64,000 nt of DNA, from positions 3,708-67,707 of IMG/VR virus record IMGVR_UViG_2513237163_000001; one strand, given 5' to 3'. Positions 48,740-50,600 of this stretch are shown one piece after another. This stretch comes from a virus. The notes under the pieces were generated by a model, which searched no databases, was not told the origin of the DNA, and saw nothing but the letters and a program-made list of their open reading frames with translations. A program made the translations under genes and the position numbers. Each line of letters starts with the position of its first letter. The stretch's first letter is position 1.

Positions 48740-48777
48740 GGCATCCATGCGGTAGCGCATGGTGCCAAGCATCATGC

Positions 48778-48805
48778 CGCCCCGCCTTGTGCGGGGTTTT
48801 CTTTT
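48778..48805 (+). terminator. Terminator-like hairpin near transcript start
   Basis: CCCCGC-CTTGT-GCGGGG-TTTTCTTTT. Confidence 0.6.
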
Positions 48806-49150
48806 GTGCCTACCCCAAGCGATACCAGCGAAACGTTGATCGCCGTGCCGTGAAATGCAGCCAACCTCCGGCGCCGGACTGGGTTGGGATTCGGCAGAGT
48901 AAGCAACGTGACTTTCCCGGGGAGAGACCGGGAGGCCTTTTGAATGGCGGTTGCGCTCAGCCACCAGCCAGAAGACCTCCGTATTGCGCGTGCGGCCGGC
49001 AGATGCCGGGATCTCCCCCAGGTTTGATACTGCCTGGACAGCCCAACGAGGTAGGGTAACGCGCTAGACCTCTGTGCCGGCTCGCGCTCGGGCCGCACAT
49101 CGAAGATCCTGCGCCGCGGGCTTTTCGATGTGCTTAACAGGAGTGAAAGC

Positions 49151-49393
49151 ATGGCATCAAACGTGGAGGAGCGCATCAAGCGCGTGGTGGCGGAGCAATT
49201 TGGCGTGGCTCTGGCATGCGTCAAGAACGATTCGAATTTCGTTGACGACTTCGGCGCCGATTCCCTGGATGCAGTCGAGCTCGTCATGGCTCTGGAAGAC
49301 GAATTTGGCGGCGAGATCTCCGACGACGAAGCCGACAAGATTGAAACGGTCCAACAAGCGATCGACTACGTCAACGCTCACGTTCCGGCCTGA
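49151..49393 (+). CDS. acpP: Acyl carrier protein (80 aa)
   Basis: [19 protein letters not shown] with phosphopantetheine Ser; AGGAG SD. Confidence 0.95.
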
Positions 49394-49425
49394 ATGATGG
49401 TGACAGCCTGGAGAGACGGGCATAT

Positions 49426-49500
49426 GGAGCGATCGTCTATCGGTCAGGACACCGGGTTTTCATCCCGGTAAGCGGGGTTCGATTCCCCGTCGCTCTACCA
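49426..49500 (+). tRNA. trnE: tRNA-Glu (UUC)
   Basis: Acceptor GGAGCGA/TCGCTCT, anticodon arm CCGGG-TTTTCAT-CCCGG, TTCGATT loop, encoded CCA. Confidence 0.93.
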
Positions 49501-49506
49501 GTTTTT

Positions 49507-49583
49507 GGGGTGTTAGCTCAGTTGGTTAGATCGCCGGCCTGTCACGCCGGAGGCCGCGGGTTCGAGTCCCGCACATCCCGCCA
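49507..49583 (+). tRNA. trnD: tRNA-Asp (GUC)
   Basis: Acceptor GGGGTGT/ACATCCC, D-arm AGCTCAGTTGGTTAGA, anticodon arm CCGGC-CTGTCAC-GCCGG, TTCGAGT loop, CCA. Confidence 0.95.
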
Positions 49584-50600
49584 GCATTGCAGTAGTGACG
49601 AGCCGATAGACGTTGCGCGATGGACAGGAGTAGCGCGGGGAGGAGCACCAAATGCCGCGAACAAACGATGGGATCGCAAAAACGATGAGGCGCCGAGGAC
49701 GGAAGGCAGATGCCGTGACAGCCGGGAGAGACCGGCACCCTGAAACATGGATAGCGGGCGGCTGATCACCGCCGGAATGCTCGGACAGCTGGAGTAGCGC
49801 CCAGCATCCATGCTTGAGGGTGACAGCCAGGAAGCGCGCACAACGCCGTGGGCCAAAAGCTAATGCGGCGCCGGCATGGGATGCCGGACAGAAGCCGTGC
49901 TTACTGCCGCCGCGAGAGCGGATTCCCTCAATAATCGCACCCGCTCCAACCTGCAAGGATACGGCAGGCCATCACCGGGCAAAGTGATGGGAGGTTAGAC
50001 GGCGACTCCGCAAGCCGTACGTGTCTGGCGGAATGCGGAGAGCGCGCCAACGCTTGATGCTGACAGCCGGGAACAGTACCGGCACCTTCACGCATGGCGA
50101 TTGGTGCAGATCAGCGCACCCCGGGCACTGTAGTTAAAGTGGCACCAGTCGCCATGACGTGAGGGTGCGTTACGACAGCAGCGATCAAGGTGCGAAAGCA
50201 GGGCCGCGCCCTTAAACCTTGGTCGCAGCCGCGGGTGGGAATCCTGCAGCACCCACCACATTGCCTGCCGCTCACATGACGGTGTGAGCCTCGGGTGATC
50301 TAGGAAAGGCGCGGTAAATCTCGTGAAAAAACCGCGCGCCCCTCCACAAGAGGCCAACCCGGAGTTGGATAGCAAAGAGAGGCCGAGAGTAGCGGTAAGC
50401 CTGGGGACGCCCAGGCCCTTCATGTTTGGCGACTGGTGCGCCTGCAGCGCAGCCGTTGCCGGAGTCGGCCGTAAAACCGCCAGCCGCCAAACACGAGGGA
50501 ATGCGCAGTGCTGATGCGCTATATGGCCAACACCCAATCCAGATGGGAAAGTCGCGTGCGGCTTGTTGGCCTTCTGGTATGCCGGGGATCAGTGCCGGCC
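49584..50600 (+). ncRNA. Candidate large structured ncRNA region
   Basis: No credible ORF; repeated GACAG-hairpin modules, long closing stems and a tRNA-like unit ending ACCA. Confidence 0.5.

Follow-up and report, generated by a model that had tools for sequence, protein, structure and literature searches.

We describe a largely non-coding region of phage DNA and a small structured RNA motif that recurs in it. The region spans positions 48745-50600 of a 64,000-nt stretch of IMG/VR record IMGVR_UViG_2513237163_000001 (hereafter the window, meaning the whole stretch that was analysed) and belongs to a prophage-like part of a 7.86-Mb genome. It holds an acyl carrier protein (ACP) gene and two transfer RNA (tRNA) genes, and otherwise consists of about 1.5 kb of folded RNA modules on the plus strand. 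The motif, a pair of short hairpins joined by a GAC-containing junction, is a real RNA-level and strand-specific element, conserved with covariation, and it recurs in hundreds of phages that infect Gram-negative bacteria, immediately before tRNAs and accessory genes. It was previously uncatalogued, being absent from Rfam 15 and from the searched literature. The genes at the locus are as follows.

49151-49393 (243 nt), plus strand: acpP-like ACP gene, 80 aa (NCBIfam NF002149, codon periodicity)
49426-49500, plus strand: tRNA-Glu (UUC) (ARAGORN; Rfam tRNA 58.2 bits)
49507-49583, plus strand: tRNA-Asp (GUC) (ARAGORN; Rfam 64.9 bits)
50609-51160, minus strand: convergent open reading frame (ORF) bounding the RNA region (ORF list, minus-strand codon periodicity)

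An earlier note, made from the sequence alone, had described the region as mostly non-coding with 243 nt of clear coding sequence beside two tRNAs, and this description is borne out. In the GC3 frame plot, clear periodicity appears only over the ACP gene and the minus-strand ORF, and there is no codon periodicity in 48750-49100 or in 49584-50600. The long ORFs of the region, which are usual on both strands in DNA of 62% GC, have no Pfam match. The non-coding verdict thus follows from the absence of codon periodicity and of family matches outside the ACP gene. The ACP coding sequence itself matches the NCBIfam acyl carrier protein model NF002149 at 121.5 bits (cutoff 106; E 1e-35), and both tRNAs are called by ARAGORN and by Rfam, whereas the ORF at 50609-51160 has no Pfam or NCBIfam match. 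Across 60 genomes of host relatives, the parts of the region held in common are the ACP and tRNAs only. The remainder is a non-coding array with at least four different RNA families, not one.

A two-hairpin RNA motif on the plus strand

The pentamer GACAG, which the earlier note had taken as the core of a recurring module, occurs 9 times on the plus strand of 48745-50600, compared with a mean of 1.7 per window of equal size, and once on the complement. In addition, the 7.86-Mb genome as a whole contains TGACAGCCNGGA 4 times, exclusively within the region and on the plus strand, and a repeat search recovered the two occurrences of GGCAGATGCCG that had been pointed out before. The clustering and the motif are therefore real, but the number of full copies is smaller than proposed: a covariance model of the motif (R1), scanned over the 64-kb window, gives three significant matches rather than six, all on the plus strand and all inside the region. 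They are listed here together with two further features that begin with related sequence.

49371-49424, plus strand: motif copy 1 (R1 30.4 bits, E 4.5e-6)
49696-49739, plus strand: motif copy 2, the best copy (R1 46.2 bits, E 4.7e-10)
50047-50086, plus strand: motif copy 3, a variant with CUGACAG and an 8-nt loop (R1 18.9 bits, E 0.0034)
48905-48983, plus strand: degenerate or partial module, with ACGUGAC, a GGAGAGA-loop hairpin and then a short stem initiated by CCUUUUGA (R1, R2)
49820-50046, plus strand: domain of about 225 nt opening with GUGACAG, structure predicted (global fold only)

Copy 1 overlaps the stop codon of the ACP gene and ends 1 nt (49425) before the start of tRNA-Glu at 49426. 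Copy 2 lies in a stretch (49692-49730) that is 92% identical to the intergenic sequence after tRNA-Met in Caulobacter phage CcrPW and that also matches Planktothrix phage Pag-Yong1. Copies 2 and 3 adjoin the RNA units A and B described below, respectively, while unit C is preceded by a different hairpin. The other three sites of the proposed module fared differently. The one at 48915 is partial or degenerate and scores weakly, with a partial R1 match at 48918-48931 (10.4 bits) and a match at 48889-48983 (20.6 bits, E 0.03) to R2, a covariance model for unit B; the GACAG at 49783 falls within unit A; and the one at 49820 opens the larger, putative domain, for which there is no BLAST homologue and no R1 call. 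Outside the island, on the minus strand at 62234-62288, there is a weak R1 match (14 bits, E 0.06) whose P2 loop is enlarged and which may be due to chance.

The motif is compact, at about 45-55 nt, and its consensus reads R-AC-NNN, a loop of 4-30 nt and NNN-GU; GAC-R; G-NNNG GARAGA CNNN-C; and A with about 6 G-poor nt. It is thus made of a helix P1, the junction GAC-R, a helix P2 with a GARAGA loop, a CA and a short G-poor tail. Both helices are 5 bp long, about 20 nt are invariant, and the conservation lies in unpaired positions. Sequence conservation ends 1-2 nt 5' of P1, the roughly 6 nt that lie 3' of the final CA contain only about 7% G, and an identical 23-mer is common to unrelated phages.

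Pairing was assessed in phage sequences from IMG/VR. A first scan used the exact hairpin pattern with four stem positions left free and matched at least 120 contigs; all four free P2 pairs are complementary in 112 of the 123 matches listed, against a chance expectation of about 2%. Across the matches listed, P2 takes the form of many different stems in which G-U pairs are present and A-C pairs absent, and pairing that is kept with G-U and without A-C indicates an RNA folded from this strand. A perfect 5-bp P1 is found in 75 of 117 copies (again among the matches listed), compared with 30 of 117 after shuffling of the upstream sequence. Moreover, in an alignment of 41 sequences (A1), which were chosen for having P1 so that P1 pairing is partly by construction while P2 was not selected, the covariation score of the two helices is 0.518 versus 0.117 for shuffled alignments. 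None of 500 shuffles reaches the observed value, and the pairing collapses when partners are slid by one column.

A second IMG/VR scan fixed the commonest P2 hairpin only and again matched at least 120 contigs. GAC stands immediately 5' of the hairpin in about 90% of the 80 new loci listed, within GTGACA, GCGACA, GTGACG and other sequences, which shows that junction and hairpin belong together. The motif samples are skewed to the commonest sequence variants and the scan counts are lower bounds. Compensatory variation, which the earlier note had read from stems within the region, is thereby seen far beyond the window, in homologues. However, its view of a single module misses the widespread family, the upstream helix P1 and the presence of at least four RNA families.

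The description of the array as an undescribed non-coding RNA also stands. A scan of the whole window against Rfam 15 at gathering thresholds finds no family for the motif or the units, and within the region it returns the tRNAs. Relaxed scans of the region (E<=5), of Bcep22, of IMG/VR loci and of 231 nt with the two top motif copies (E<=10) give tRNAs only, with noise at or below 21 bits. The families covered include GOLLD, ROOL, HDV-like, hammerhead, twister, pistol, hatchet and hairpin ribozymes, Mu-gpT-DE, Rsm/Csr small RNAs, tmRNA and T-box. Neither a description of the motif nor, among 8.4 million searchable papers, its exact sequence was found in the searched literature, whose coverage stops short of subscription journals. 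Homologues do covary, and neither an existing Rfam family nor a missed protein accounts for the region.

Distribution and genomic context

BLAST of the non-coding part against phage genomes returns short, highly similar matches, all in unannotated gaps. They lie after tRNA-Met in Caulobacter phages CcrPW and CcrColossus, 5' of an HNH gene in Planktothrix phage Pag-Yong1, between two tRNAs in RSP15, between two HNH genes in Burkholderia phage Bcep22, and in Albius and Raharianne. Named phages with the motif have hosts in Escherichia, Klebsiella, Cronobacter, Pseudomonas, Stenotrophomonas, Acinetobacter, Caulobacter, Phaeobacter, Planktothrix, Microcystis and Synechococcus. When the same pattern was run over bacterial genomes, one per GTDB species, full pairing was found in 51 of the 122 matches listed. 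The fully paired copies come from Alpha-, Beta-, Gamma-, Delta- and Zetaproteobacteria, Cyanobacteria, Planctomycetota, Verrucomicrobiota and Myxococcota, groups that add about 45 copies to those from IMG/VR, whereas most matches in Bacillota and Actinomycetota are unpaired and appear to be chance occurrences. Within the genus of the window, the motif model is positive in 2 of 60 other genomes, and this sporadic occurrence fits mobile phage cargo.

The position of the motif follows two patterns. It lies 1-9 nt 5' of tRNAs, often tRNA-Met, in six loci (L042, L056, L108, L063, L113 and L117), in CcrPW and in the window. The CcrPW locus (L030) is a jumbo-phage tRNA array, with motif-like copies at 10-65, 1008-1048, 1077-1118 and 1501-1539 among genes for tRNA-Cys, tRNA-fMet and tRNA-Met; one of these copies ends 1 nt before tRNA-Cys. 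Elsewhere, the motif lies 8-40 nt 5' of start codons, and the 92 distinct downstream proteins among the matches listed fall into 77 clusters. Sampled downstream genes encode Mu gp36, Acb2/Tad1, an HNH-AP2 endonuclease, an ADP-ribosylglycohydrolase and a PDDEXK nuclease. A genome from the genus of the window has the motif in a 100-nt intercistronic gap, ahead of a gene read by eye as a C5 DNA methyltransferase. In three IMG/VR contigs (L091, L103 and L142) and in the Roseovarius genomes L171 and L195, a 75-aa gene with an Acb2/Tad1 hairpin domain starts 26-30 nt past a top-scoring copy; Acb2/Tad1 is an anti-CBASS/Thoeris sponge family.

About 75-80% of neighbouring ORFs are on the motif strand, and copies often occur in tandem, spaced 100-300 nt apart. 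Several phages carry the motif in a gene-free gap of 400-800 nt with a long imperfect stem following at once, a layout shared by the window and by coliphage mEp390, Klebsiella phage P7641, Cronobacter phage CS01, Medea1, Alexa and Pokken. In mEp390 (L154), positions 2105-2790 form a leader of about 700 nt with a PL-like promoter, two motif copies and a long stem; a GC-rich stem with a short U run was read there by eye and was not called by the terminator scan. The 80-aa coding sequence mEp390_036 annotated inside this leader is probably not a gene. In 36 E. coli genomes, pieces of the same leader recur in rearranged order and in different surroundings, left unannotated by PGAP.

If the motif is as it appears, it is one of the commoner structured RNA elements of tailed phages still missing from catalogues: each of the two exact-match patterns reaches at least 120 IMG/VR contigs, and the phages and prophages concerned belong to at least five bacterial phyla. 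Cultured model phages that carry it include mEp390, CcrPW, CcrColossus, Pokken, CS01 and Medea1. Since PGAP and phage annotators leave its sites blank or fill them with doubtful small ORFs such as mEp390_036, its recognition would improve annotation.

Further RNA units in the region

The motif copies alternate with larger folded units, which are listed below with the hairpins at the entry of the region and before the ACP gene.

48779-48806, plus strand: intrinsic-terminator-like hairpin with U-tract at the region entry (terminator scan, fold)
49095-49133, plus strand: 19-bp hairpin just 5' of the ACP ribosome-binding site (repeat search, fold)
49736-49822, plus strand: unit A, a long imperfect stem closed by CCCUGA / UUGAGGG (repeat search, z -3.78)
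50085-50166, plus strand: unit B, a 24-bp stem closed by CCUUCACG / CGUGAGGG (z -5.97, homologues)
50163-50258, plus strand: predicted tRNA-like element (fold, z -3.21)
50309-50392, plus strand: unit D, a structured RNA (BLAST 79% over 58 nt, Ralstonia phage RSP15)
50399-50499, plus strand: a hairpin (50399-50416) and unit C (50417-50499), a long stem closed by CCUUCAUG / CACGAGGG (repeat search, z -4.79)
50495-50535, plus strand: conserved 3' hairpin with flanks (GCGCA, 7-nt loop, UGCGC) (phage homologues)

The long closing stems reported in the earlier note correspond to units A, B and C, with folding z scores of -3.8, -6.0 and -4.8, and units A-D, like the motif, are conserved with covariation on the plus strand. 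For units B, C and D, other phages provide homologues that covary and lie at intergenic or tRNA-array positions. Unit B, whose apical part carries the conserved AGAUCAGC and GUUAAAGUG, has homologues in Bcep22, between the two HNH genes, and in IMG/VR contigs L026 and L028, with compensatory changes in 6 of its 33 predicted pairs. Unit C is a paralogue of unit B (R2 39.5 bits, E 1e-6), and in its homologue in Ralstonia phage Albius the inner stem is wholly different in sequence and still complementary. Unit A is weakly related to unit B (R2 19.4 bits, E 0.06). Unit D is homologous to the whole 96-nt spacer between tRNA-Met and tRNA-Gln in RSP15, with 4 compensatory changes among 12 predicted pairs. 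The 3' hairpin at 50495-50535 is 90% identical in Ralstonia phages Albius, Hyacinthe and Raharianne. The hairpin before the ACP gene folds at -25.9 kcal/mol (z -4.27), while folding z is unremarkable at 49584-49700 (+0.6) and 50300-50398 (-0.4).

On the minus strand of L028 (IMG/VR_UViG_3300045003_000247), positions 2030-2540 hold an ACP gene, one small ORF and then a hairpin with unit-B RNA. The two ACPs are 44% identical, and since L028 is a second phage in which ACP is followed by unit-B RNA, the linkage may be conserved. R2 finds no unit-B homologue in 84 motif-bearing IMG/VR loci, which indicates that the units, unlike the motif, are restricted to particular lineages. A unit-B-like match in L029, a tRNA array of a 259-kb low-GC phage, was set aside as unproven, as R2 did not confirm it and about two such matches are expected by chance.

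The element at 50163-50258 appears, from its predicted fold, to be tRNA-like and not a tRNA. A 6-bp acceptor-like stem, a T-arm-like hairpin and an ACCA end are predicted, with a GACAG-initiated branched hairpin replacing the D and anticodon arms, and its 3' part (50228-50258) has 74% similarity to that of tRNA-Asp. Neither ARAGORN nor the Rfam tRNA model calls a tRNA there. Within 1.8 kb, the window brings together three motif copies, two tRNAs, the tRNA-like RNA and another three conserved RNA families, which makes it a good test bed.

Other RNA features lie near the island or elsewhere in the window. A C4 antisense RNA (Rfam RF01695, 61.7 bits) at 51455-51541 is directly followed by a Bro-N-domain antirepressor-like ORF (51577-52260), so that a P1/P7-type immunity-I module adjoins the island. 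A HEARO RNA (IscB omega-RNA; 117.7 bits) lies at 58890-59118 together with a 529-aa ORF (58944-60533).

Possible functions and relation to known elements

Tentatively, and with a probability of roughly 0.45, we propose that the region gives rise to a polycistronic early transcript that comprises mRNA, tRNAs and small RNAs and is punctuated by a new cis-acting processing or insulator element. The early operon of the prophage would yield one plus-strand RNA carrying the ACP mRNA, tRNA-Glu, tRNA-Asp, the tRNA-like RNA and units A-D, with motif copies separating the units and each marking the 5' edge of the next tRNA, small RNA or ORF. The motif would direct an endonucleolytic cut at or beside itself; the RNA might cleave itself, or the cut might be the work of a host RNase that Gram-negative bacteria have in common. 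Thereafter the new 5' end would be shielded by the 5-bp P2 hairpin, which together with the unstructured tail would stabilise the downstream RNA and present it independently of what lies upstream; ahead of tRNAs, RNase P would remove the P2 hairpin. Transcription as one RNA, cleavage and the identity of the cutting enzyme are the parts of this proposal that we infer. Among the functions suggested in the earlier note (processing signals, a protein sponge or a decoy), the position of the motif at the 5' edge of tRNAs and ORFs, its G-poor tail and its tandem arrangement favour a processing signal. If the proposal is true, a 5'-edge element for tRNAs and for counter-defence, methyltransferase and homing genes would explain how such cargo is expressed independently of context. 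It would also provide a compact natural insulator for synthetic biology and, if catalytic, an added ribozyme class.

Several observations weigh against this proposal. About 20 nt that are invariant across phyla exceed the needs of a simple RNase E or RNase III site, which suggests a specific partner or catalysis and keeps a new ribozyme class open, and a hairpin 1-3 nt from the 5' end of a tRNA might hinder rather than help RNase P. Part of the conservation arises by construction, since the first search pattern fixed most invariant positions, and the second scan corrects this partly. As for transcription, an operator-controlled promoter had been proposed at about 48700, but the sigma-70 scan does not pick one up there, and the region is instead entered through the terminator-like hairpin at 48779-48806 (a 7-bp stem with 6 GC pairs, then TTTCTTTTGT). 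Read-through or an undetected promoter must therefore be assumed. In addition, runs labelled as RNA-Seq hold 48300-51300 inside one DNA-like contig of 110,830 nt at a depth of about 150-180, and the element is not present in two raw-read runs. The libraries behind this contig may really be DNA, or the contig may be a high-copy replicon of about 110 kb, and in either case it carries no evidence of expression either way. An 8-bp inverted repeat (CTACCGCA / TGCGGTAG; 48695-48756) brackets the site of the proposed promoter; together with the terminator-like hairpin, it could be a short two-hairpin small RNA rather than an operator-promoter.

Within the proposal, the motif may be a new class of small self-cleaving ribozyme, an insulator of phages of Gram-negative bacteria that would cut itself out of polycistronic transcripts upstream of tRNAs, small RNAs and accessory genes and leave a defined 5' end protected by a hairpin. 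We regard this as a rather unlikely form of the idea. The pointers to it are circumstantial, namely the size of the motif, its invariant nucleotides in junction and loop, its closeness to tRNAs and its broad distribution.

One may argue that the motif acts on transcription rather than on RNA processing, as a nascent-RNA element that modifies RNA polymerase for antitermination or anti-pausing, like put or N/nut, and allows read-through of terminator-like hairpins. The mEp390 leader of about 700 nt, in which the motif comes just after a PL-like promoter next to the repressor gene, does continue with the GC-rich stem and U run; the motif in the window comes after a terminator-like hairpin in an early operon beside a helix-turn-helix regulator gene; and in Bcep22 and Medea1 it occupies leaders or gaps of early-type operons. 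Its purine-rich GARAGA loop is also reminiscent of boxB loops. Yet several copies per operon, placed 1-9 nt before tRNAs or in 100-nt gaps, are unlike a promoter-proximal loading site, the put region of HK022 has no match to R1, and the same motif sequence persists from enterobacteria to cyanobacteria and planctomycetes, in contrast to put and N/nut, which are restricted to particular lineages. We consider antitermination unlikely.

About equally unlikely is a role in trans, in which the small RNAs would be decoys or sponges that bind a host protein (a defence nuclease or a regulator) or the tRNA-Asp anticodon loop through GUGAC. The anticodon loop of the tRNA-Asp, CUGUCAC (49539-49545), is the exact complement of the GUGACAG found in the motif 150 nt away, and within the junction it is GAC that varies least, even in the hairpin-only scan; however, a complementarity of 5-7 nt could be chance, and the GU of GUGAC is paired in P1, leaving only GAC-R free. 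Phage tRNAs are tied to counter-defence against tRNA-cleaving systems such as PARIS, and the array sits with phage tRNAs and a tRNA-like RNA. Acb2/Tad1 anti-defence genes follow the motif directly in several contigs, and copies within one locus could act additively. Nevertheless, most loci contain just one copy, placed in a short intercistronic gap immediately ahead of an ORF, an arrangement that fits a cis element better than a sponge. The CsrA-type consensus is not matched either: the idea that GGA loops form a CsrA/RsmA sponge has no specific support, the GGA lying within an invariant GGARAGAC with both Gs at the edge of stem and loop and the sole Rsm-like Rfam match scoring 8 bits.

Somewhat more doubtful is a function in DNA, where the motif, which might fold as a single strand, would be a junction for modular exchange that shuffles cassettes of accessory genes or tRNAs between phages, as PeSL motifs of T4-type phages or integron attC sites do. 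The downstream cargo is indeed extremely diverse and enriched in accessory genes, and the 23-mer shared by unrelated phages would suit such a role. Similarity between the mEp390 leader and E. coli prophages breaks at query positions 161/163 and 205/208, at the edges of a weak motif copy (154-208), and the same RNA modules of that leader recur in another genomic context. PeSLs, too, have been described as mobile regulatory cassettes (PMC2839356, PMC4122927). But two freely varying helices that keep their pairing, tolerate G-U and avoid A-C on the coding-sense strand are typical of RNA, the distance to tRNA 5' ends and start codons is tight and fixed, and no recombinase or HUH enzyme is consistently near; shuffling at shared sequences can also be a by-product of RNA function. 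Finally, that nothing special is present (a missed protein gene, or chance repeats and stems in GC-rich DNA) is very improbable and already largely refuted: long ORFs do occur on both strands and several single hairpins have unremarkable z scores, but there is no codon periodicity or family match, homologous pieces of 40-90 nt with compensated pairing lie between tRNAs or in unannotated gaps of other phages, and the motif statistics are far beyond chance.

The comparison with known systems begins with ribozymes. An HDV-like fold is a nested double pseudoknot with P2 and P3 between the P1 strands, a P4 and a J4/2 carrying the catalytic C, and the hammerhead is a three-way junction with CUGANGA and GAAA core strands. 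Both folds were threaded onto the motif by hand. The HDV-like or theta ribozyme was rejected since P1 loops of the motif go down to 4-9 nt, too short for P2 and P3/L3, and there is no conserved 3' sequence for the 3' strand of P2 and no Rfam match. The hammerhead was rejected because the flanks form no third helix (A1 columns 1-2 versus 53-54), the linker is GAC-R, and no conserved CUGANGA lies 5' of P1. Unlike both, the motif consists of two independent hairpins joined by 4 nt and matches no Rfam ribozyme. Theta ribozymes reportedly lie 3' of tRNAs, whereas the motif lies 5'. In its size, its invariant junction and loop nucleotides, its free covariation, its wide occurrence in phages, its tandem arrangement and its adjacency to tRNAs, notably tRNA-Met, the motif nevertheless resembles the small ribozymes found beside phage tRNAs (HDV-like theta, PMC10879173; hammerhead and twister). 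A K-turn formed from tandem GA flanks was also considered and dropped, as no conserved C-stem lies upstream. A promoter, of either the sigma-70 (GTGACA as -35) or sigma-54 (GGCAC) type, was dropped as well: there is no conserved -10 or -12 downstream, and a promoter cannot explain covariation.

Among RNA elements that act on elongation, the nut site comprises a boxA (for NusB/NusE) about 8 nt upstream of a boxB hairpin, which is bound by the phage N protein. No boxA near the motif was noticed by eye, no search aimed at it having been made. In HK022, a subfamily relative of mEp390, putL lies just downstream of PL and putR about 270 nt downstream of PR (PMC9378689). R1 run with filters off over HK022 24000-32000, which covers PL/putL and PR/putR, gives a best score of 10.9 bits, inside IS903. 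Like HK022 put, with its two stem-loops, and lambdoid nut, with its purine-loop boxB hairpin, the motif is a cis-type hairpin RNA in early-operon leaders, with the mEp390 copy downstream of a PL-like promoter; unlike them, it can be present many times in one operon, is found in late or structural and tRNA contexts too, and keeps its sequence across phyla.

The RNase III hairpins of T7 early and late mRNAs and REP stabilisers are intercistronic elements that divide up a polycistronic transcript and determine how stable the segments on either side are. The former are long irregular duplexes and the latter host repeats, neither with a conserved loop or junction, whereas the helices of the motif are 5 bp long and its unpaired nucleotides are conserved. 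T4 species 1 and 2 RNAs, GOLLD and ROOL are stable structured non-tRNA RNAs co-transcribed with phage tRNA genes, and by this description units B-D and the tRNA-like element resemble them. The units are only 80-100 nt, far smaller than GOLLD and ROOL, and have no Rfam match. The comparison with GOLLD, ROOL and HDV-like RNAs made in the earlier note fails on sequence-structure search and on topology. The motif also recalls the specifier loop of the T-box, since it shows a GAC (Asp) codon and a purine by the end of a helix, complementary to an anticodon loop; unlike a T-box, it has no Stem I platform, T-box bulge or terminator/antiterminator, and its hosts are Gram-negative.

Among described concepts, the PeSL of T4-type phages comes closest; it is a mobile regulatory cassette made of a sigma-70 promoter and a terminator-type stem-loop (PMC2839356, PMC4122927). 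The motif itself is not a PeSL, for there is no -10-like conservation after the hairpin, no U-tract, and no scanned promoter at the copies in the window. Whereas PeSLs are confined to T4-like myoviruses, the motif has two covarying helices and about 20 invariant nt, also precedes tRNAs, and spans several bacterial phyla. What it shares with PeSLs is its place in the genome: both are short intergenic stem-loop elements, repeated in the genome, linked to modular shuffling, co-oriented with transcription and set beside variable accessory ORFs (PMC2839356, PMC4122927).

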